Positions 21,117-54,223 of a stretch of DNA of 64,000 nt are shown here, piece after piece. How positions within the stretch are numbered: the first letter of the stretch is position 1; each line of letters begins with the position of its first letter. The notes beneath the pieces are model-generated. The model was not told the DNA's origin and searched no databases. It was given only the letters and a program-made list of their open reading frames with translations. Source of the stretch: an uncultured Gammaproteobacteria bacterium (lineage in GTDB: Bacteria > Patescibacteriota > Microgenomatia > UBA1406 > HO2-37-13b); assembly GCA_964422025.1 (NCBI GenBank), contig CAYQYZ010000002.1:67765-131764 (forward strand), given 5' to 3'. Made by a program: the position numbers and the translations under genes.

Positions 21117-23861
21117 ATGCCAACAGAAATCATGTCTGATTATGCGCAAAATATTGAGGCTGGATCGCCAGCAAGCTCTGCATTCGCTGAAAAAGTACCC
21201 CTTGGAACTGAACAAATCTTCCATACTACCGCCACAATAGGTCAAGATCAATATACTGTAATTTTTGACCCGAGAAATATCACCCTCGAAGAAGAAGATG
21301 CTATTGCTTCCCTAGATAGACAAATTGAAGGTTTGAATAGAGTTATGGGTAGTCGCGGACGTACTGATTTTGCTGATAGAAGACAACTTAGTAGAGCTTT
21401 AGAACAAAGACTGGCAGTTCTTGGACAAATTACCAATAGAGAAACGCTGATTTTTACTGATCCCGTTGGAAATAACCCATATATAAACGGCGTACTAAAT
21501 CGCCCACTCGATGAGGTACCTGCGCCTGCATCAAAAAAAGACAATTCCTCGCACACTATTTTTCCTGCTGTCAATGCAATGGTTGCCGCATCGCTTCTCG
21601 GTCAACCGTTTATGCACGATGGAATCCAACCAAATACACACCAAGAAATAGTACAGCACGCACAATCCCAAACAGTCGCAGGTCTTGTAGGTAAATTTGA
21701 TGCAAGTCGAGCTGTTCCAGATAAAAACGGGAACTACACATATGATATTCAACAAGGCGATGAAGCAATATCAGTAACACTTACTCCTCTTGAAGTTGCA
21801 TTCTTAGATACAGTTCAAAAACGAATTCCACAAGGAGACGAATCTGCACCAGGGGCAACACCCAATAAGATATTTCTACCATCAGTAGGAAAAGGTATGA
21901 CCCGTCTACCGGTTGAACCAACCGATGGGCCTCCGCCAACAGCGACCCGCCGACCAACAATGGTAATTCCAACACCTGAAAGAACTTCTCCTACGCCTCC
22001 TGCAATAAAAACAGAAGAACCAACTCCCACTACAGCGCCAACATCAGAGCCTACAGCCACGCCAACTGAAGCGCCTACGGCAACAGAAGCAGGGCCAGTG
22101 ACGGAATTAGCACTCAACATAGGCGATGAAATCATCGTAGTTGACGATTCCTATGAATATGCTATGGTTGGTAAAAATGGAGATCAGGAATCTGGAGCGG
22201 CCGCAGTAGGATATGATTTTTCAACGATGACTAACCCAGTTCTTGACGGTGAATATGTTGTTGGTACGGTGATAAAAGATGGGAAACCCATGACCATACG
22301 CAAGTCCATACATCAAGTTGATCCATCAATACGAGGTCGTATCAAACAAGGCAATCCCGATGAAGATACTCGATTGAGGAGTAAAGCGAGTATTTGGGAA
22401 GGCTCCGATGAACCGGGTATCGATAAACCCGTGCGCATTACAGCGAACAATAATGGAAGCTTGGGTGTTTATGGTCGGACATTTTTTGGAAATTTTAATA
22501 CTGGCGCTCAAATTGAGTTGAGCGGAAGAGCTTCGGGGAATGCAAAGACTGGCGACATGGTTATTATGAGCTGGAACCAAGACACAAGAACAGCGGAGAT
22601 GTTAACGTTTCGATGCAGTACGCAAGGGACGCAGTGGACCGTATTAGCTTCAACACAAGCAAGTACTTCGTTTGCTGCTTTAATAGAATCTAGAAAAACT
22701 TCAGATGGTTCTACCAATGGCTTACAAACTGAAAACGAACTATATAGATTTGCCATGGGTCAAACGGACATTAAAGTAGAAACAAAAGATGGAAACCTAA
22801 ATATACTTGATAAGGATGGTAAAGTCATCCAAACAATCCCACTTACTAATGCAATGGAAAGTGGCCTAAACTTTGTAGATTTTGGACGAACTGGTTTCCC
22901 AAAAAGCCAAGCAGTCATTACTGTGAATAGGGCGCATGTTTCTTTTTCTCGCCCACTAGAGGGAACGCCTCAATTAAGTCCTGAAAGTCGATTACCTACT
23001 TTAGCCGATCTAGCCAAAGCAAATGGAATAACTATTATGGCGCAAGGTGATTCTGAATTTTTTTCTTCACAGCCTGGATTATTAAAATTATATGACAGAA
23101 CCGCACATCTTATAGATACAAATTCAGCATATCAAGACGGTGCGGACTTACAAAGATTTCTTTTAGATCAAAAGCGTACACCCGCGATTGTTCTTGGGGC
23201 AGGAATATCGGATCTTGATCTTGAAAAGATTGTAAAGGAGAATCCCGGATCTGTTTTTCAGTTCGTAGCCAAAGGCACAAGTAACGGCCCTGAGGGAACT
23301 GTCGTTAAACCAGATGGTTCATTAGTAGACAAGAGAAAATTGCAAAAAGTTCTAGATGCTGCAGCCGCTAATGGTTCTAAAGTTATGTTAATTACTCCTA
23401 CGCCTCTTGATAAAAAACTAGACAAAGCCACACAGACAGACCGAGCTACGTCACTTTCCCCCCAACTAAGACTTTTAGAAGATCTCAAAACTCTTAAAAA
23501 TCAGAGCGCTCTAAAGGTGCTATTTGCTGGTGATTCAAAATATATCCTTGATCCAAAGCTAGCACGCTCTGATCTGGTATCTGCTGTCCGATATGCGTTA
23601 GAAGTTGTACAAAATGCGGGTTTTGATGCAGGGCTGGCAAATATCAGTGGACCTGATAAAGAATATGTTTCTTTAATTGGTGAAATAGCCTCAGGTTTAA
23701 AAAATATAACTCTTGGATTCGGCACGTCACTCAATACAGAAAGCAAACCTGTTGGACTGTTTAATTATACAGGTGGCCCCGTTGAAGATTATCAAACAGT
23801 CAGCTATTCAGAAGGAGAAGATGCTCTGTATAATGCACTTCTAAATAATCTTCCCAAGTAA
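21117..23861 (+). CDS. Large hypothetical protein (914 aa) with a central Pro/Thr linker
   Basis: Long uninterrupted ORF. PPTATRRPT..EPTPTTAPTSEPTATPTEAPTATEA linker. The C-terminal part has a GDSEFF / ITPTP pattern faintly reminiscent of SGNH hydrolases (weak). Confidence 0.7.
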   Translation: MPTEIMSDYAQNIEAGSPASSAFAEKVPLGTEQIFHTTATIGQDQYTVIFDPRNITLEEEDAIASLDRQIEGLNRVMGSRGRTDFADRRQLSRALEQRLAVLGQITNRETLIFTDPVGNNPYINGVLNRPLDEVPAPASKKDNSSHTIFPAVNAMVAASLLGQPFMHDGIQPNTHQEIVQHAQSQTVAGLVGKFDASRAVPDKNGNYTYDIQQGDEAISVTLTPLEVAFLDTVQKRIPQGDESAPGATPNKIFLPSVGKGMTRLPVEPTDGPPPTATRRPTMVIPTPERTSPTPPAIKTEEPTPTTAPTSEPTATPTEAPTATEAGPVTELALNIGDEIIVVDDSYEYAMVGKNGDQESGAAAVGYDFSTMTNPVLDGEYVVGTVIKDGKPMTIRKSIHQVDPSIRGRIKQGNPDEDTRLRSKASIWEGSDEPGIDKPVRITANNNGSLGVYGRTFFGNFNTGAQIELSGRASGNAKTGDMVIMSWNQDTRTAEMLTFRCSTQGTQWTVLASTQASTSFAALIESRKTSDGSTNGLQTENELYRFAMGQTDIKVETKDGNLNILDKDGKVIQTIPLTNAMESGLNFVDFGRTGFPKSQAVITVNRAHVSFSRPLEGTPQLSPESRLPTLADLAKANGITIMAQGDSEFFSSQPGLLKLYDRTAHLIDTNSAYQDGADLQRFLLDQKRTPAIVLGAGISDLDLEKIVKENPGSVFQFVAKGTSNGPEGTVVKPDGSLVDKRKLQKVLDAAAANGSKVMLITPTPLDKKLDKATQTDRATSLSPQLRLLEDLKTLKNQSALKVLFAGDSKYILDPKLARSDLVSAVRYALEVVQNAGFDAGLANISGPDKEYVSLIGEIASGLKNITLGFGTSLNTESKPVGLFNYTGGPVEDYQTVSYSEGEDALYNALLNNLPK

Positions 23862-36678: not shown

Positions 36679-37394
36679 ACGAATTTTTCAAAATGAATAT
36701 TGGCTTTTTCAATTCCATTTTCCGCAACAAAAGTTTTTAATGATTCCACTACGGGTTGGGCACCACAAATATAAAATGTTGCGCTATTTTTTATTTCTGC
36801 ATCTTTTGTAATATGTCCATGCACGTACATATTTATTCTCCCTTTTCGAAAAAGCGAATCAGCAAAAACATTTTCATCAGTTTCTTGCGACAAGCAAATC
36901 ATTGCACGTAAATTCGGATACGCCAAGCATAGATCCTTAATTTCTTGTACAAGATATAAATCTTTTTTTGCTCGCAGTCCCCAGTATAAATACACATCTT
37001 CTTTCCAACCGGTCTGCAAGAGAGTTTTGATCATGCTCAAAATCGGCGCAATTCCAGTTCCGGTTGCCATGAAAATTTTTTGAGGGCGTTCATCTTTTAT
37101 TGAAAAAATCCCCGCAGGTCCTTGAAAAAAAGCAGACTCCCCAATCTTCAAATCTGACAAATGCGATGATCCGATTCCATTGGGAACCATTTCTACAAGC
37201 AACTCAAACGTTCCCTTCTCCGCCGGACTGGAAAGAACTGAATACAATCGACGAACTTCTCCAACTCGTAAAATCATGTATTGCCCTGCGGCAAACTCCA
37301 GCTGTTCCTGCGGTTGTAATGTAAATACTAATCTCCATACATCATGGGACAATTGTATTTTTTCAGTTAGGGTTGGATGAAAATCGGCGATCAT
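36675..37394 (-). CDS. Ferredoxin-NADP reductase-family oxidoreductase (FAD/NAD(P)-binding)
   Basis: 239 aa. RLYSV (RxYS), GTGIAP and FYICG motifs. 4-nt overlaps with both neighbouring genes. Confidence 0.8.
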   Translation of the reverse strand: MIADFHPTLTEKIQLSHDVWRLVFTLQPQEQLEFAAGQYMILRVGEVRRLYSVLSSPAEKGTFELLVEMVPNGIGSSHLSDLKIGESAFFQGPAGIFSIKDERPQKIFMATGTGIAPILSMIKTLLQTGWKEDVYLYWGLRAKKDLYLVQEIKDLCLAYPNLRAMICLSQETDENVFADSLFRKGRINMYVHGHITKDAEIKNSATFYICGAQPVVESLKTFVAENGIEKANIHFEKFV

Positions 37395-39730
37395 AATTTT
37401 GAACGTTGAATAATCTCGGCTTCCACAAGCTCACGTGGTCGGCCATATTTAAGTCGTGAGAGTTGAATAATAGCATCGGCAACTTTAGGATTTGCAGCGG
37501 CATTTAATTCGGTCATATCTTTTGTTGTATCAACCGAGAATGGTGGAACCGGTTCATTGTCGACGATTGTTTTCATGTATGCATTAAATCGGTCAATGTT
37601 AATTAAATCGGATTCACTAAAAATTGGTTGAAATTCATGCGACATATATGAAGCATCCGTTACGCCAACGCGGAAGCACATCAAGGTTCCTACGTTTCCA
37701 AAAACTGCATTTTTAACTTCTTCGTCCATCTGTCCGATAAACTGATTTGCTACGGTTAATGACAGGCGATATTTTCGAGCCTCAGAAAGAATTGTTGCAA
37801 AATCAGGAGTAGCAAAGTTTTGGAACTCATCGACATAGAGGAAGAAATCACGGCGCTTCTCTTCGGGAATATCTTGTCGACTCATTGCGGCAACAAGAAT
37901 TTTTGGGACCAGTACTAATCCCAAAAAGTTTGAATTTTCTTCACCTAATTTTCCTTTTGATAAATTAATCAAAAGAACTTTTCCTTGATCCATAACTTCT
38001 CGGAAATTAAATGCCGATGTTGATTGCCCAATAATATTTCGCATTGTTTTGTTGGTAACAAATCGACCGAACTTTGAAACGATATAGTCAAGGACTTCAG
38101 ATTTATGAAAGTCTGAGGTTTGAGCAATTTGATCAGTCCAATAACGGCGAATAATCGGATCCTTTACTTTTGGCAACAATTCTTGCACATATTTTTGATC
38201 AGTCAATACTCGCACAACCTCAATAAACGTGGCACCTGGGTCAACCATAACCGTAAGCATAGCATTCCGAACCGCATGTTCAAATCGGGGACCAATAATA
38301 CCTGTCCGTTGTGGATCGTACAATTTATACATCAAATTAATGATTGCCGATGTAATAAAATGCTGTTCTTCTTCTGTTCGGGCATCGAGCAAATTAAGCC
38401 CCATTGGTCGTTCGGTATCAGACGGATCAAAGTAAATAATATCTTCAGCTCGTGAAGGCGGAACGTGTTTGATAATGTCTTCGATCAAGTCTCCATGTGG
38501 ATCGATAACACATACGCCGTGACCTGCAACAATATCTTGTCGAGCCATTTCCAAAAGAAGCTGCGATTTTCCGGTACCCGTTTTTCCAATGATGTAAGTA
38601 TGACGGCGGCGATCGACCAATTGAATATGAATCGGTCGGCGAACACCACGGTATTGTCCCATTCCAATGCTTGTGCCGCCACTTTGAGGAACTTCTGCAG
38701 CAACAGGAGCCGTCTTGGCTTTGAGCCATTTAATGTGCGGCGTTTCAATGGTTTTATTGGGAAAATGGAAAATACTTGCGAGCTCGTCGGTTGAGAGGAT
38801 AGAGGTTGTTTTATAAATGGGCAATTTAAAAACTGGAAAAAATTTGTAAATAAAATTTAACATGAAATTACTTTTAAACAACATACTCGCCGAACCAAAA
38901 TTATTTAAGTCAGATGTAAATTGCGAGAATGACGATTTAATATTCTTTAAATGTAAATCCGCCATTTCTTTTGTTTTTGCAGATACAACAATTCGAATCG
39001 CCGTTTCAAATCCTGAGCGCGAAACTTTTTCATCAATTTTTTCAAGCGTTTTCGCATCTACGCTAAAACTGGCTTCATCAGGAGTAGCTTCCTTTTTTTT
39101 CGTTTCTGAAATATATTCTTTCCCTTTGTGTTTCCAATGACTATTAATGGGACGAATGAGGACTTGTACAATTGCGCCTTCTTCTTCCCCCATCTTAGAC
39201 AATGCGGATGTTATACCCGACAATGGATCGGTAGGAAGCTCTTTATATGTTTTTATTGGCTTAAATTCATCTTTTTTTTGACGAAGTTCAGTCCAGGCGA
39301 CTGCACCGTCTTCGGTAAATACGTGTGGTTCATCGACTAATTTAATATCTGCTGCGGAGTAGTACCCATAAATCTGCTTTTCAACTAGGTCGCGAAGCTT
39401 TGCGGGCGCAGTAACATAAAAGCGAATTTCAGCTTCCTTGGCAACAATTTCAAAAGCAATGGTGTCGGAAATATCGAAAAATGACCAAAATCCATGACTT
39501 GCAAGACCTGAAAATCCTGAAAACATCTGTTCAGCAGCGTCTATTTTAATCTCATTATCCTTAGGAACCCGAACTTCCATAGTAACCATATCAAGGGAAG
39601 CCTTTTCGCGTTTTTTGAGCCGGACGTACATGACGTATAAGTAAAAACATCCAACAGTCAATAAAGCAGCGAATAGAAAGGTGAATATTACGAGAATAGA
39701 AAGTACGATTCTACCAGTTATGTCATCCAT
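37391..39730 (-). CDS. TraD/VirD4-like (T4SS coupling-protein-like) membrane-anchored AAA ATPase
   Basis: 779 aa. N-terminal TM segment, Walker A GKTGTGKS and Walker B-like FLYVDEFQNF. Architecture resembles conjugative coupling / DUF87-type ATPases. Confidence 0.65.
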   Translation of the reverse strand: MDDITGRIVLSILVIFTFLFAALLTVGCFYLYVMYVRLKKREKASLDMVTMEVRVPKDNEIKIDAAEQMFSGFSGLASHGFWSFFDISDTIAFEIVAKEAEIRFYVTAPAKLRDLVEKQIYGYYSAADIKLVDEPHVFTEDGAVAWTELRQKKDEFKPIKTYKELPTDPLSGITSALSKMGEEEGAIVQVLIRPINSHWKHKGKEYISETKKKEATPDEASFSVDAKTLEKIDEKVSRSGFETAIRIVVSAKTKEMADLHLKNIKSSFSQFTSDLNNFGSASMLFKSNFMLNFIYKFFPVFKLPIYKTTSILSTDELASIFHFPNKTIETPHIKWLKAKTAPVAAEVPQSGGTSIGMGQYRGVRRPIHIQLVDRRRHTYIIGKTGTGKSQLLLEMARQDIVAGHGVCVIDPHGDLIEDIIKHVPPSRAEDIIYFDPSDTERPMGLNLLDARTEEEQHFITSAIINLMYKLYDPQRTGIIGPRFEHAVRNAMLTVMVDPGATFIEVVRVLTDQKYVQELLPKVKDPIIRRYWTDQIAQTSDFHKSEVLDYIVSKFGRFVTNKTMRNIIGQSTSAFNFREVMDQGKVLLINLSKGKLGEENSNFLGLVLVPKILVAAMSRQDIPEEKRRDFFLYVDEFQNFATPDFATILSEARKYRLSLTVANQFIGQMDEEVKNAVFGNVGTLMCFRVGVTDASYMSHEFQPIFSESDLINIDRFNAYMKTIVDNEPVPPFSVDTTKDMTELNAAANPKVADAIIQLSRLKYGRPRELVEAEIIQRSKL

Positions 39731-43668: not shown

Positions 43669-44547
43669 TTACAATTCTCCAAGCTTTTCTTTGCGTTCAG
43701 TTTCTTCTTTAATGAGGTTTAGGTATTTTTCAGTTGAAGAAAGGCGTTTGTGACCAACTATTTTTGAAATGTAGGCAATTGATCCACCCCCAACAAGTTG
43801 ATAGGCGATAAATGTATTTCGTAAATCCTGTACTTTTGCATTTTCGATTCCGACTTCGCGGAAACAGCGAGTAATAAGCGTGCGAATATTTCGAACCAAT
43901 AATGGGCGTCCGGTTTTGGTTACAAACAAATAATCACTGTCTGTTTTATGTCGGATAGTCATGTATTCTTCAATTGCTTTTTTAACCGCTTTATTAAGGG
44001 GAATTGATCGACCATTGACTTTAAGTGCATCAGTTCCAATATCGGTAGTCTTAATTTCTGCAAGTTCTCCAATACGAACGCCTGTTTGGAGCAAAAGCTC
44101 TACAATAGCATAGGTTCGAAGGTCTTCTTTAGAAAAATCACGGAGGGCCCGATACTCTAATTTAGAGAGAATGCGAGGAGGAGCTTGGGTGTATTTAGGA
44201 TGCGACACTTCAAGCGCAGGGTTTTGACTAATAACTCCTTCAAGTTTCAAGAATCGGAAAAAGGTTCGAATAGAGTTTAGTTTGCGTGATGCTGATTTTT
44301 TAGTGTATCCTTCGCCTAAAAGCTTTTGAATGAAGCCATCAATTTCGTCGCGTTTAACTTCCTTGATGTCGTTTTTTTCACGAGAAGAGATGAAGGCAAT
44401 AAATTGCTCAAGGTCTTTCTTGTATGCTACAATGGTGTAATTCGATTTTCCCTGGTTCTTGAGGTTTTCGACAAAAGAACTTATGAGTCCTCGAAGGTCT
44501 CCTGAATCCATATAACCTATAATATCATTATTATGGCCAAATTGCAA
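43669..44547 (-). CDS. Tyrosine recombinase, XerC/XerD-like
   Basis: 292 aa. N-terminal SAM-like domain, GVRIGEL (catalytic Arg), LRNTF and GHKRLSSTEKY (His..Tyr). Confidence 0.8.
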   Translation of the reverse strand: MQFGHNNDIIGYMDSGDLRGLISSFVENLKNQGKSNYTIVAYKKDLEQFIAFISSREKNDIKEVKRDEIDGFIQKLLGEGYTKKSASRKLNSIRTFFRFLKLEGVISQNPALEVSHPKYTQAPPRILSKLEYRALRDFSKEDLRTYAIVELLLQTGVRIGELAEIKTTDIGTDALKVNGRSIPLNKAVKKAIEEYMTIRHKTDSDYLFVTKTGRPLLVRNIRTLITRCFREVGIENAKVQDLRNTFIAYQLVGGGSIAYISKIVGHKRLSSTEKYLNLIKEETERKEKLGEL

Positions 44548-45284: not shown

Positions 45285-45310
45285 CAAAAAAAACCGCCCA
45301 TGTGGGCGGC
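45285..45310 (-). terminator. Rho-independent terminator after the tRNA
   Basis: The minus strand reads GCCGCCCACATGGGCGG followed by TTTTTTTT. Confidence 0.6.
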
Positions 45311-45321
45311 TTTTACTTATG

Positions 45322-45576
45322 TTGCGGAGCCGGGAATCGGACCCGGTCTAGGAGATTATGCACTTATTCTTCAATTACTTGAAGGGTTGGACTATGTCTT
45401 CATCCCGACGTATCGGGAGCCGGCGTGTAGTCTCTACGGGGTCATTCCGACGCGTGTCGGAAGACTTCCCACGGCATTGCCCCATAAGGGTTTCACCGTT
45501 ATAGCCAGTTATCTAGGTAAATTACTCTACCAAGAGCCCATTTTGAGCCTCCTGTGCGGCCTTACACTACCCCGCT
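45322..45576 (-). tRNA. tRNA with anticodon CAU (Met or Ile2) interrupted by a group I intron
   Basis: 5' exon 45576-45546: AGCGGGG UA GUGU AAGGCC GCAC A GGAGG CU. 3' exon 45360-45322: CAUAA UCUCC UAGA CCGGG UCCGAUU CCCGG CUCCGCA A. The joined exons give a cloverleaf with loop CUCAUAA. No CCA is encoded. Confidence 0.7.
45361..45545 (-). ncRNA. Group I intron (~185 nt, no ORF) in the tRNA anticodon loop after U33
   Basis: The 5' exon ends in U and the intron ends in G. GUAGAGACUACACG and GAAGACAUAGUCC match the conserved P7/P3 core (R and S) elements of tRNA group I introns. Compare the Azoarcus GUAGAGACUAGACGG. Confidence 0.65.
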
Positions 45577-45585
45577 ATAAATATA

Positions 45586-45613
45586 AGTATAGCACAAAAG
45601 ACGCGTGTGTCAA
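45586..45613 (-). promoter_or_regulatory. Promoter for the tRNA: TTGACA-16-TGcTATACT
   Basis: The minus strand reads TTGACAcacgcgtcttttgtgcTATACT, 9 nt before tRNA position 1. Confidence 0.5.
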
Positions 45614-45654: not shown

Positions 45655-46344
45655 ATGGCAAAGTCGAGTGAAAAAATTAAGGCTCGGGATTTTAGAAAAG
45701 AAGGGAAGAGTATAAAAGAAATCGCACAATTGCTCCAAGTTTCCGCAGGAACAGTGAGTGTTTGGTGTTCAGATATTACACTGACTCCTGCTCAGAACGA
45801 AATATTAGCTCTAAGAATGACTGATCCTCACTATGGAAAACGCGCAATGTATTTAAAAAAAATTAAGAGCGACACCCTAGATAAGATTGAATTGCTTAAA
45901 AAAGAGGGTGTTGGCGAGATTGGTACATTACAGGAGAGGGACTTATTTATAGCGGGTGTTGCATTATATTGGGCGGAGGGGTTCAAAAAAGATAAACAAA
46001 TTGGATTTGCTAACCTTGACCCAAAAATGATTAACTTCTTTATAAAGTGGCTTGAAGTTAGTCTTGGCGTAAAAAAAGAAAACATTTCTGCTCGTGTTGT
46101 CATAAATGAATCTTACAGTGATAAAATTGATGAAATACAAGAGTACTGGTCAAATATGATAGGAATTCCACCTTCTAACTTCCAAAAGCCTACGTTTCAA
46201 AAAGTAACATGGAAAAAAGAATATGCAAATAAAAATGAATACAAGGGAGTATTGCGCATTAGAGTGGCCAAAAGCTTGCCGCTACTACGCAAGATATTTG
46301 GATATATTGAAGGACTTCACGCATCAAAAAGTTATTTAGTATAA
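45655..46344 (+). CDS. HTH domain plus LAGLIDADG-like homing-endonuclease-like protein (free-standing)
   Basis: 229 aa. N-terminal HTH (GKSIKEIAQLLQVSAGTVSVW). LFIAGVALYWAEGFK resembles the LAGLIDADG/..DAEGS motif and is followed by a beta-rich core. Divergent from the intron-bearing tRNA. Confidence 0.45.
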   Translation: MAKSSEKIKARDFRKEGKSIKEIAQLLQVSAGTVSVWCSDITLTPAQNEILALRMTDPHYGKRAMYLKKIKSDTLDKIELLKKEGVGEIGTLQERDLFIAGVALYWAEGFKKDKQIGFANLDPKMINFFIKWLEVSLGVKKENISARVVINESYSDKIDEIQEYWSNMIGIPPSNFQKPTFQKVTWKKEYANKNEYKGVLRIRVAKSLPLLRKIFGYIEGLHASKSYLV

Positions 46345-52313: not shown

Positions 52314-53594
52314 TCAACAATTATATGGTGCCTCTGCTTTACATTCAGGACAATGAATCTTGCCATTTTGAATTCGTGCTTTAATGTTTTTCGCTTTGCA
52401 CATGGGACATTCTTTACATAAAAGCGTATCTGAGCCGGCTGTTTTAGACATAGATTCTCCATCTTGCAAGCTTGCAGAAATAGTGTTTGATGATGAGGCT
52501 GTTGGACATGATATACCCCCAAACACCCGAGGGTCTTCTTGTTGTTTGTAAAAAGCGATGCGCTGATCTTGTGACATAGGCGGAAGCTCAAAAACTTGTA
52601 CTTTGTCGCCGTTGTTTCTGTGCTTGTATTTTGTATACAACTCATTCGCGCGTACGTAAATTCCATTTCGAAGTGCTTCGGTAGTCTTGAGAACTTCTGC
52701 ACCCTCAGGACCTAGATTCATAAGATTATGGCGGGCCAATTCCCGAATCATTCTTTTGTATGTACTAATATCTTCCGATAGTTGCCAGTCATTTTTAGCC
52801 ATAGCTTGGAGCTCTAAAGAACGAGAGATTTCTTCTTGTCCGATTCCTAAAATATTGAGTGTTGCATCAAGCGTTTGGCGCGAACCATCGGTGAGTGCAA
52901 TGGGGCGGGTAAGCATGTCTCTGTTGGTTTGCATGGAAGGACCTTGAAGTGTGGGTTGACCTGTTAGTCGCTCGATGGCCGTATACTGATCGCGCGCAAC
53001 ATGAAACGGTAGTTGATCACCTTCATGCATAAGATTGATTTGGGTAAACCATTCGCCATCAGCGTCATTTGGATCAACATTGTCATTATTAGTACCATAC
53101 CAGTCTCCTTTTGCGAGAATAAAAGTAAATCGTCGATCAACTTGCGTGCCGTTTCCATCGACTTTTTGGGGAGAAGAAATAACTGCTCCAGCCGCTCCTG
53201 ATCGGAGCATTTCGTGTGCGGCTTCATATCCTTGCGTTTCATAGTCTTCGTTACTTCCCAAACCAAACCGTTGCCGAGCCCGTGCCCACGAAGCTGACAT
53301 GTTGGTTCCTTGGATATCCATGTGTCCTTGCGGAGAAAGTTGACCTAGAAAATAACTAAAGGGAACTCGGAAACTGTGTTCATTGATAAAATTAATTGCA
53401 CTGCGCTCAATGTATTTATCGGCTTGGGCAGGAGTTAAGTGGGGATTATTCTGCAAGAATGCTGCTTCATCAAGTGGTCGCCAGGTATCGTTAATCGATG
53501 CTCCAGTTTCGGGACGTTCGCTCTCTAAAACAGGCTGACGAGAGTAAACAGCAGGTTGTTCGGGATAATAAAGTGCTCTGACTTCTGCGTGCAT
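52314..53594 (-). CDS. Uncharacterised 426-aa soluble protein with a C-terminal zinc ribbon; first gene downstream of the cobalamin riboswitch
   Basis: Long ORF with no TM segment or signal peptide. The C-terminus is CKECPMC-x15-CPEC. I recognise no family. Confidence 0.8.
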   Translation of the reverse strand: MHAEVRALYYPEQPAVYSRQPVLESERPETGASINDTWRPLDEAAFLQNNPHLTPAQADKYIERSAINFINEHSFRVPFSYFLGQLSPQGHMDIQGTNMSASWARARQRFGLGSNEDYETQGYEAAHEMLRSGAAGAVISSPQKVDGNGTQVDRRFTFILAKGDWYGTNNDNVDPNDADGEWFTQINLMHEGDQLPFHVARDQYTAIERLTGQPTLQGPSMQTNRDMLTRPIALTDGSRQTLDATLNILGIGQEEISRSLELQAMAKNDWQLSEDISTYKRMIRELARHNLMNLGPEGAEVLKTTEALRNGIYVRANELYTKYKHRNNGDKVQVFELPPMSQDQRIAFYKQQEDPRVFGGISCPTASSSNTISASLQDGESMSKTAGSDTLLCKECPMCKAKNIKARIQNGKIHCPECKAEAPYNC

Positions 53595-53619
53595 ATAATT
53601 TCCCTGCTCGGGGTGTGAT

Positions 53620-53707
53620 CGAAGGTTGGTATTCGGACTTGTTCCTGTGGAAGGAACTTACCGTTGCGGCACAGCTTAGGATTTTCACCTAATTCCCACA
53701 ACCTTCG
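53620..53707 (-). promoter_or_regulatory. Cobalamin riboswitch aptamer (compact, class II / variant-like)
   Basis: The minus strand reads CGAAGGUUG-UGGGAAUUAGGUGAAAAUCCUAAGCUGUGCCGCAACGGUAAG..CACAGGAACAAGUCCGAAUACCAACCUUCG. It has a 9-bp P1, the GGUGAAAAUCC and CCGCAACGGUAAG core, and a B12-box-like AAGUCCGAAUACC. Confidence 0.75.
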
Positions 53708-53716
53708 TTTTAGTAA

Positions 53717-54223
53717 CTATGTTGAAATCTCTTCAACCGATTCATTATACTGTCGGGCCAACATAAAAAACAAGTCTGAAAGACGGTTGATATATTGGAG
53801 AATTACTTCGTCGTCGATGCTCAGGGCAACGATGGATCTTTCGGCTCTGCGCGAGATAGCACGAAGCACATGAAACCACGAAGAAACTTCGGTTCCTTGG
53901 GGCAAAATAAAGCGCGTTAATTTTGGAACACTGTCTTGGATTGTGTCGATACGCTCCTCGAGAGCCTGGACGTCGGGGAGAGTGACCATTTCTCCTTTTC
54001 GGGCTCCAACCAAATACCCCATGATTTTGTACAGGTTTGTTTGGATATCGGTTAAGAGCTGTTTATCCTGGTCACTATTAAGCTTTGAAATGACTAGACC
54101 GATAAAACTCTCAAGTTCATCAATCGTGCCACAGGCATTAATGGTAGGATCCGATTTGGAAACGCGCGTTTTACCAAATAAGCTCGTTTCGCCTTTGTCT
54201 CCTGTTTTAGTATAGATTGACAT
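53717..54223 (-). CDS. pduO: ATP:cob(I)alamin adenosyltransferase, PduO type
   Basis: 168 aa. IYTKTGDKGETSLFGKTRVSKSDPTINACGTIDEL is a hallmark N-terminus. Confidence 0.9.
   Translation of the reverse strand: MSIYTKTGDKGETSLFGKTRVSKSDPTINACGTIDELESFIGLVISKLNSDQDKQLLTDIQTNLYKIMGYLVGARKGEMVTLPDVQALEERIDTIQDSVPKLTRFILPQGTEVSSWFHVLRAISRRAERSIVALSIDDEVILQYINRLSDLFFMLARQYNESVEEIST

Follow-up and report, generated by a model that had tools for sequence, protein, structure and literature searches.

Here we describe a tRNA gene with the anticodon CAU that is split by a small group I intron, located on the minus strand (positions 45576-45322) of a 64,000-nt stretch of bacterial DNA; this whole stretch is termed the window below. 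The 185-nt intron (45545-45361) separates U33 from C34, and we consider it very probable that it represents a genuine group I intron at site 33/34 of a functional tRNA(CAU) gene. This class of genes was covered in 2026 by Nakagawa et al. (mSystems; PMC13011429), who surveyed tRNA introns in 95 complete genomes of Patescibacteria and 4,934 complete bacterial genomes and listed Met(CAU) introns at 33/34 in two Microgenomatia genomes, GCA_001029755.1 (190 nt) and GCA_013426185.1 (216 nt; Table 1/S3). The window intron is a further member of this published class, and its size is typical of the class. A first-pass annotation of the window, made from the sequence alone, had regarded tRNA introns of the Candidate Phyla Radiation (CPR) as much less discussed, a view that no longer stands since this survey covers exactly this class. 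The locus thus adds little by itself, both the class and its size range being published already; what goes beyond the literature we found is a probable initiator tRNA as host, the size distribution across the whole family, a core shared with 23S rRNA introns of CPR bacteria, and a covariation between tRNA positions 18 and 55.

Structure of the split tRNA(CAU) gene

Homologues were collected by two scans. For the genome scan, each GTDB species was represented by one genome, and the pattern TAGAGACTANACGCC-N(8-38)-AAGANATAGTCC returned at least 119 loci; for each of them every pair of U(-1) and G(omega) was enumerated as possible splice sites and the joined products were run through ARAGORN, by which at least 46 loci were recognized as tRNA(CAU) genes with a 33/34 intron. 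Metagenome contigs were scanned with the 5′ exon and the guide sequence of the intron as anchor, which returned at least 120 loci, 87 of which were parsed and 45 of which gave a validated splice junction.

Joining of 45576-45546 to 45360-45322 on the minus strand gives a 70-nt tRNA, AGCGGGGTAGTGTAAGGCCGCACAGGAGGCT|CATAATCTCCTAGACCGGGTCCGATTCCCGGCTCCGCAA, and all elements of the cloverleaf drawn by the first-pass annotation are present as given, including its stems, U8, A14, the anticodon loop CUCAUAA, and a T loop UCCGAUU with C55, with A1 lying opposite A72. ARAGORN reports the joined exons as tRNA-Met(cat). The intervening 185 nt begin right after U33, end in G and carry GUAGAGACUACACG and GAAGACAUAGUCC. 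Three placements of the intron lead to the identical mature tRNA; the U33|C34 boundary was chosen because it is the only one that has both U at position -1 and G at the omega position, and the intron position of the first-pass annotation is thereby confirmed. When applied to the unspliced gene in intron mode, ARAGORN also detects an intron of 185 nt, yet puts it in the wrong place and names the gene Leu(CAA), a placement we rejected for breaking the U(-1)/omega-G rule as well as the conserved CUCAUAA loop. A 68-nt register offered by the same program (G1-C72, A8, T stem of 4 bp) was likewise rejected by comparison with homologues, which carry U or C at position 1 of the register starting at A45576 and retain U8 along with D and T stems of 4 and 5 bp, respectively; for the latter reason we take A45576 as position 1, so that the boundaries first proposed hold. 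In its default bacterial mode ARAGORN misses the gene at the window locus. Since standard annotators miss or mislabel such genes, tRNA-based estimates of completeness for CPR genomes are distorted.

The gene and its flanking signals are as follows.

45586..45613, minus strand: putative sigma-70-type promoter, TTGACA-16 nt-TATACT with a TG extension (11/12 consensus matches; function read from the consensus alone)
45546..45576, minus strand: 5′ exon, tRNA positions 1-33 (homologous exons in at least 46 genome loci and at least 45 validated metagenome loci)
45361..45545, minus strand: 185-nt group I intron at tRNA site 33/34 (RF00028, structure, covariation, folding-energy z = -4.3)
45322..45360, minus strand: 3′ exon, tRNA positions 34-73 (sequence and ARAGORN)
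45289..45314, minus strand: intrinsic terminator, GC-rich hairpin plus downstream T run, 8 nt past A73

The 5′ exon consists of A1, the acceptor strand GCGGGG, U8, the D arm GUGU-AAGGCC-GCAC, the anticodon stem strand GGAGG, C32 and U33. The 3′ exon continues with the anticodon CAU, A37, A38, the stem strand UCUCC, the variable loop UAGA and the T arm CCGGG-UCCGAUU-CCCGG, and ends with the acceptor strand CUCCGC, A72 and A73; CCA is not encoded. About 10 nt separate the upstream promoter from tRNA position 1. Read from these sequence signals, the locus in all likelihood constitutes a single-gene transcription unit of promoter, split tRNA gene and terminator in a Microgenomatia (CPR/Patescibacteria) chromosome.

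The group I assignment made in the first pass is supported by the Rfam model RF00028 (Intron_gpI), which matches 45555-45368 on the minus strand over its full length (model positions 1-253 of 253) with 70.2 bits against a gathering threshold of 50 and an E-value of 9.2e-16. The minimum free energy (MFE) of the intron is -64.8 kcal/mol (z = -4.3), none of 200 shuffled sequences folds as well, and the unconstrained MFE fold already includes P2, P3, P4, P5, P6, P8 and P9. The complete P1-P10 structure was derived on the window copy from the Rfam alignment plus the family, with the following elements.

45535..45541, minus strand: internal guide sequence AUG, GGCU (splice-site U.G pair in 43/43 aligned sequences; P1 97% and P10 92% paired)
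45516..45531, minus strand: P2, 6 bp with a GUAA tetraloop (a hairpin with GNRA loop in most family members, stem sequences differing)
45504..45508, minus strand: P3 5′ strand CUGGC (partner 45420-45424; 99% of alignment cells paired)
45472..45498, minus strand: P4 (5 bp), J4/5, minimal P5, J5/4 and P4′ (P4 99.5% and P5 92% paired)
45438..45470, minus strand: P6/P6a/P6b as one extended hairpin (per-sequence folding; outer P6 pair exchanging between GC and AU)
45428..45434, minus strand: P7 5′ strand G(A)GACUA with bulged A (6 bp with 45389-45394; presumed guanosine-binding helix)
45420..45424, minus strand: P3 3′ strand GCCGG (covariation alignment)
45403..45418, minus strand: P8, 6 bp, UACG loop (CCC/GGG helix as the likely receptor of the L2 GUAA loop)
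45389..45394, minus strand: P7 3′ strand UAGUCC, following J8/7 UGAAGACA (Rfam alignment and structure)
45369..45384, minus strand: P9, 6 bp with a GUAA tetraloop (99% paired; compensatory changes at 5 of 6 pairs)
45361, minus strand: omega-G, the final intron nucleotide (the only placement with U at -1 and G at omega)

P1 is formed by 4 bp between the guide GGCU and the GGCU of the 5′ exon, with U33.G at the splice site, and P10 by 3 bp between the guide AUG and the anticodon CAU of the 3′ exon. P5 is reduced to CCC[U]/[G]GGG, that is 3-4 bp with a loop of 3-5 nt, and P9.0 to 2 bp that are followed by omega-G. P2.1, P5abc, P7.1/7.2 and an open reading frame (ORF) are absent. By analogy with Azoarcus and Tetrahymena, P7 is taken here to be the guanosine-binding site.

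This structure was scored for covariation in a MAFFT alignment of 43 sequences, with partners slid by 1-3 columns and 500 shuffles as controls. Standard pairs are formed by 83.6% of the alignment cells compared with 36-46% in the slid controls, and none of the 500 shuffles reached the observed covariation score. Repeated double changes (AU/GC/CG, UA/CG) occur in P3, P4, P5, the outer P6 and P9, including a UA to CG exchange at two pairs of P3. Several points weigh on the other side. The scored structure was derived from the window row itself, which biases the slid-partner control in its favor; the invariance of P7 is uninformative because this helix was part of the search pattern; P1 has only 4 bp; and P2 and P8 are 48% and 61% paired in the MAFFT columns, with P6a also weak. 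The last of these is explained by MAFFT misaligning variable hairpins, as one-by-one folding shows P2, P6a and P8 to form as expected in nearly every member in spite of differing sequences.

Tertiary contacts leave a trace in the family as well. In the Azoarcus intron, L2 docks into P8 and L9 into P5 (PMC2813881). A GAAA loop in L9 is accompanied by a receptor-like P5 of the form CCUAA...AUGG in 8 of 14 members, whereas such a P5 occurs in 4 of 33 members whose L9 loop differs (Fisher p = 0.003), and in the family member L105 a GAAA loop in L2 goes together with CCUAAG...UAUGG in P8. By this analogy, the L2-P8 and L9-P5 contacts are probably formed in the window intron too.

The two odd features of the tRNA pointed out in the first pass, A1 opposite A72 and C55, are both real, and they raise the question of a decaying pseudo-tRNA with a dead intron, in which both would be marks of decay or sequencing error. 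A1 is indeed unique among the 47 genome-derived sequences (46 listed loci plus the window), and C55 departs from a near-universal U55. This explanation is nevertheless very improbable given that no helix is broken and that the U.G pair, omega-G, promoter and terminator are likewise intact, that the locus is syntenic with a single-copy gene of relatives, and that an independent metagenome contig (L141) has A1 opposite A72 and C55 together. Among the matches listed in the genome set, T-loop positions 54-55 read UU in 33, UG in 6, CG in 4 and UC in 4 of the 47 sequences, the window being one of the last four. The D-loop position aligned to G18 is A in all 10 listed genome copies with G55, and G in those with U55 or C55. 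C55 is therefore not an error but a recurring variant of the family that is tied to an 18:55 covariation; the variant loci include L045, L046, L058, L076 and L141.

Identity of the host tRNA

Judging from its acceptor stem and from the other CAU tRNAs of the class, the host probably serves as initiator tRNA(fMet) in this lineage. In the listed genome loci the acceptor stem reads N1-GCGGGG...CCCCGC-A72-A73, where N1 is U in 27 and C in 19 of 46 loci, the window alone having A; all genome sequences with a correct register among the listed matches have A at both 72 and 73. The 1:72 pair of the intron-bearing tRNA is never a strong one in these matches, being U-A, CxA or AxA. The window tRNA fits the acceptor features of initiators with A1 opposite A72, A73, G2-C71 and C3-G70, so that the A1-A72 mismatch noted in the first pass corresponds to an initiator-type 1:72 non-pair. 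Moreover, within the portion of Table S5 drawn on here (PMC13011429), the acceptor stem equals that of fMet-labelled tRNAs with 33/34 introns from Nitrospirota, Desulfobacterota and Omnitrophota.

Gene counts point in the same direction. Complete Microgenomatia genomes contain two CAU tRNAs and two tRNA-Ile, while Saccharimonadia, JAEDAM01 and several other genomes contain three CAU tRNAs and one tRNA-Ile (PMC13011429 Table S2). As there are only two CAU tRNAs per complete Microgenomatia genome, one of them must be the initiator. The intron-less CAU tRNAs found beside 25 family loci are elongator types with G1-C72, and the intron-bearing tRNA is likely to be the better initiator candidate of the two.

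There are four points that weigh against an initiator. First, the anticodon stem contains A29-U41, G30-C40 and G31.U39, so that of the three G-C pairs canonical for initiators a single one is present, and A29-U41 and G31.U39 are present in every family variant among the matches listed. Second, the 11:24 pair is U:A throughout the family (D stem GUGU/GCAC), as in elongators, where initiators have A11:U24. Third, tRNAscan-SE and tFind label the homologues “Met” and not “fMet”, and intron-less relatives are called Met(CAT) as well. Fourth, the window brings 64 kb of the genome into view, and an intron-less second copy elsewhere is possible. When the spliced tRNA was compared with E. coli genomes by BLAST, only chance matches of 25 nt resulted.

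The first three points would be expected if the host were an elongator tRNA-Met and the other CAU tRNA the initiator, a reading that we find clearly less likely. The other CAU tRNA beside the 25 loci is the poorer initiator, having G1-C72 and a canonical elongator D arm and also lacking the GGG/CCC anticodon stem. A CxA mismatch at 1:72 would be an unusual feature for an elongator. The intron-bearing tRNA lacks a strong 1:72 pair and has the (C/U)GCGGGG...CCCCGCAA acceptor stem found in the fMet-labelled tRNAs of the same portion of Table S5. A tRNA-Ile2 host (CAU, modified with lysidine), as for the Azoarcus tRNA-Ile intron, can be practically dismissed: the anticodon would fit and Ile2 genes of other phyla hold group I introns, but the Ile2-labelled tRNAs in this portion of Table S5 show G1-C72 and acceptor stems unlike this one, and the Azoarcus-type Ile2 introns lie at 36/37 rather than 33/34. 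No Ile2(CAU) is needed in any case, because Microgenomatia genomes contain two tRNA-Ile besides the two CAU tRNAs, and at 13 of the 46 listed genome loci a tRNA-Ile(UAU) gene lies no more than 8 kb from the split tRNA gene. This suggests that Microgenomatia read AUA via a UAU anticodon rather than a lysidine-modified tRNA-Ile2.

If the host is the initiator tRNA, then translation initiation would depend on splicing, and across a whole class of CPR bacteria it would hinge on a ribozyme. One may go further and imagine the split gene as the sole initiator tRNA gene of Microgenomatia, its introns as the smallest natural autonomous group I ribozymes (from about 180 nt up), and the splicing as a nucleotide-sensing gate on initiator supply, the last idea arising from the need for free guanosine or GTP in the first splicing step. 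This combination is a long shot; were it true, such a gate would operate in organisms stripped of most protein regulators.

Predicted splicing, intron size and genomic setting

The structure allows a splicing pathway to be proposed. The fold of the precursor would comprise a minimal yet complete group I core (P1-P10, P2, P3-P9 and P9.0), in which the guide AUG, GGCU pairs with both exon ends and sets the U33.G wobble at the 5′ splice site. The first attack, after U33, would come from a free guanosine or GTP that P7 has bound, omega-G (45361) would take the place of this guanosine, and the 3′-OH of U33 would attack after omega-G, joining CU to CAUAA through the junction GGCU|CAUAAUCU and releasing the 70-nt tRNA, to which CCA would be added. 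The fold is probably held by the GUAA loops of L2 and L9 docked into P8 and P5 at their CCC/GGG helices, and the RNA may be so short because it keeps the Azoarcus layout with simpler receptors.

By homology, and by analogy with a related 196-nt tRNA-Asp intron of Patescibacteria that self-splices precisely in vitro (PMC13011429), the window intron quite likely splices autonomously. The periphery is minimal, with a 4-bp P1, a tiny P5 and simple helical receptors, and one could suppose that a genuine intron of this kind splices in vivo only with the help of a protein, as chaperone or cofactor, or under unusual ionic conditions. Many small or destabilized group I introns rely on proteins. The dependence of the Mrs1/bI3 type offers a precedent (PMC2813881). 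We consider this doubtful for the window, given that the similarly minimal tRNA-Asp intron splices in vitro without protein and that we saw no RNA-binding gene encoded in the intron or conserved next to it, the conserved neighbors being an Xer recombinase, a helix-turn-helix (HTH) protein and a family 2 glycosyltransferase (GT2). Azoarcus-type introns are moreover very stable self-folders, which counts against the need for a chaperone.

With regard to size, the intron of Azoarcus is about 205 nt long, and compared with it the window intron is small, as the first-pass annotation had remarked. The remark does not extend to its relatives: 185 nt is ordinary for the Microgenomatia tRNA(CAU) intron family and small for group I introns generally. 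The lengths in the 46 listed genome loci run 180, 183, 183, 184, 185, 186 and so on up to 266 nt (median 200.5), one locus (L023) having the same 185 nt as the window copy, and the 45 listed validated metagenome copies span 181-258 nt (median 197). Altogether, 60 of these 91 measured copies (46 genome and 45 metagenome, among the matches listed) are shorter than 205 nt, the shortest being 180 nt. Published tRNA introns range from 184 to 894 nt with a mean of 257 (PMC13011429). The shortness of the window copy comes mainly from its P5 region, which with 21 nt is the family minimum among the matches listed; its remaining segments have lengths close to the median of the family. A literature search for the smallest group I intron gave no match. 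Being mostly below the Azoarcus length and relying on simple GUAA/CC:GG contacts, the family provides candidates for structural work on minimal ribozymes.

The named hosts among the listed matches all belong to Microgenomatia (Woese-, Roizman-, Gottesman-, Levy-, Shapiro- and Chisholmbacteria). The window itself can be placed as a segment of a Microgenomatia chromosome because its conserved neighbors are syntenic with Woesebacteria and Roizmanbacteria, the best matches being the Woesebacteria locus L044 (Xer 74% identical) and the Roizmanbacteria locus L035; the CPR-like host suggested in the first pass is thus borne out. The following neighbors of the tRNA gene recur in the family.

43669-44547, minus strand: Xer-type tyrosine recombinase (next to the homologous tRNA gene in 87 fetched loci)
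45655-46344, plus strand: HTH protein (in 80 fetched loci)
37391-39730, minus strand: coupling protein (T4CP) of a type IV secretion system (T4SS) (in 40 fetched loci)

A GT2 glycosyltransferase and T4SS-type pilins are also conserved beside the tRNA gene in many family loci. We considered the tyrosine recombinase as part of a mobile element or island targeting the tRNA gene, and rejected this as it is a conserved syntenic housekeeping neighbor in 87 loci. No exact database record was found for the flanking HTH protein.

Records labelled as metagenome-assembled genomes of “uncultured Gammaproteobacteria” or “Pseudomonadales” (TPA_asm) carry the Microgenomatia-type tRNA, intron and neighbors (L006, L023, L037, L107 and others). 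One of them, L006, is a 615-kb chromosome (OZ246397.1), and the NCBI organism labels of such records look wrong. Elsewhere in the window, a cobalamin riboswitch match lies at 53607-53721 on the minus strand (RF00174, 43 bits against a gathering threshold of 31.5), directly upstream of a 426-aa ORF (52314-53594, minus strand). ARAGORN further reports a 94-nt “tRNA-Phe(gaa)” at 23188-23281 on the plus strand, which lies inside a 914-aa ORF (21117-23861, plus strand) and is probably a false positive.

Relationship to known group I introns

The closest known systems are the two published Microgenomatia Met(CAU) introns, one of which (GCA_001029755.1) was recovered in our scan as L033. Their exons are homologous to those of the window and alike in sequence, xGCGGGGTAGTGTA...GGCT / CATAATCT...CCGCAA, with the published form TGCGGGGTAGTGTACGGCTGCAC...GGCT / CATAATCT...; the insertion site, the core strands UAGAGACUAYACGCC and AAGAYAUAGUCC, and the P2 and P9 hairpins with GNRA loops are also common to them, as is the miscall of Leu(CAA) by ARAGORN for one of the pair. 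Sequence identity of the window copy is about 72-77% with named relatives and does not exceed 82% with the closest locus among the matches listed. It differs from the published pair by its 185 nt achieved with a minimal P5, by A1 (AxA) in place of U1 or C1, and by C55.

The first-pass annotation had placed the intron with the IC3 introns of tRNA genes, which goes too far. The architecture fits IC3, with P2 present, P2.1, P5abc and P7.1/7.2 absent, and the L2-P8 and L9-P5 contacts that we infer, and the P7 strands match IC3. The J3/4-P4, P6 and P3′ strands, GGCUAUAACGG (also read as GGCUAUAACGGUGAA), CCGUGGGAAG and ACGCC, are unlike those of the IC3-labelled Leu, fMet and Lys tRNA introns in the portion of Table S5 drawn on here, namely UCAAAnUCGGGGAA, CCGAGCCAAGC and GACGG (PMC13011429), and are common to 23S rRNA introns of CPR bacteria. 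In a crude scoring of the window core against 12 labelled introns, the best matches were an “IC3” Arg intron of Bacteroidota (49 of 73 positions) and an “IA3” Phe intron of Elusimicrobiota (46 of 73), with typical IC3 introns of Leu, fMet and Lys tRNAs reaching 28-39 of 73. Covariance-model typing assigned no tRNA intron of Patescibacteria to IC (PMC13011429), and membership of the window intron in IC3 is unproven.

The link to rRNA is provided by 10 non-tRNA loci of the genome scan, which among the matches listed are 23S rRNA genes with group I introns of identical core. Loci of this kind include L001, L004, L008, L011, L016, L024, L036, L042 and L053, from Parcubacteria, Saccharibacteria, Berkelbacteria and others. 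These introns share the scan core TAGAGACTANACGCC...AAGANATAGTCC with the window, score 53-78 bits with RF00028 and are about 200-230 nt long; they differ in having a 23S host gene, in occurring mostly in Parcubacteria, Saccharibacteria and other classes, and necessarily in P1/P10. Because the core pattern is shared, the sequences suggest that the tRNA and rRNA introns of CPR bacteria may form one lineage.

Position 2 of the fMet anticodon loop (33/34) is one of the four classical settings of bacterial tRNA introns (Williams 2020, tFind preprint). The classical fMet.2Ug introns occupy this site in the tRNA-fMet of cyanobacteria, Bacteroidota, Desulfobacterota, Nitrospirota and Omnitrophota (Williams 2020; PMC13011429). 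As far as the entries drawn on here go, they resemble the window intron in insertion site, loop context GGCU|CAUAA, guide type AUGGGCU and acceptor stem of the host, and they differ in a length of 244-305 nt, in the IC3 label and in the J3/4-P4, P6 and P3′ strands (UCAAAUUCGGGGAA, CCGAGCCAAGC, GACGGCAGG). In the same entries, the canonical D arm and GGG/CCC anticodon stem of initiators are preserved in the host tRNAs, unlike in the window tRNA.

The tRNA-Ile(CAU) intron of Azoarcus sp. BH72 (IC3) shares with the window intron a P2 without P2.1, the lack of P5abc, a tRNA host with the anticodon CAU and the P7 strand GAGACUA with its bulged A; the L2-P8 and L9-P5 tetraloop-helix contacts are part of its layout (PMC2813881) and are inferred for the window. 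It is unlike the window intron in lying at 36/37, in its CAU/GUG P1 and in its GAAA loops with 11-nt receptors, where the window has GUAA loops and plain CCC/GGG receptors, and it is about 20 nt longer and far more GC-rich. Finally, the tRNA-Asp(GUC) intron of GCA_001029755.1, from the same genome as L033, resembles the window intron in size (196 nt), in lacking an ORF, in its host among Patescibacteria and in its P7 strands GUAGAGACUA and AGAUAGUCC; it differs in the tRNA, in the insertion site (35/36) and in diverged core strands, with 34 of 73 core positions matched.

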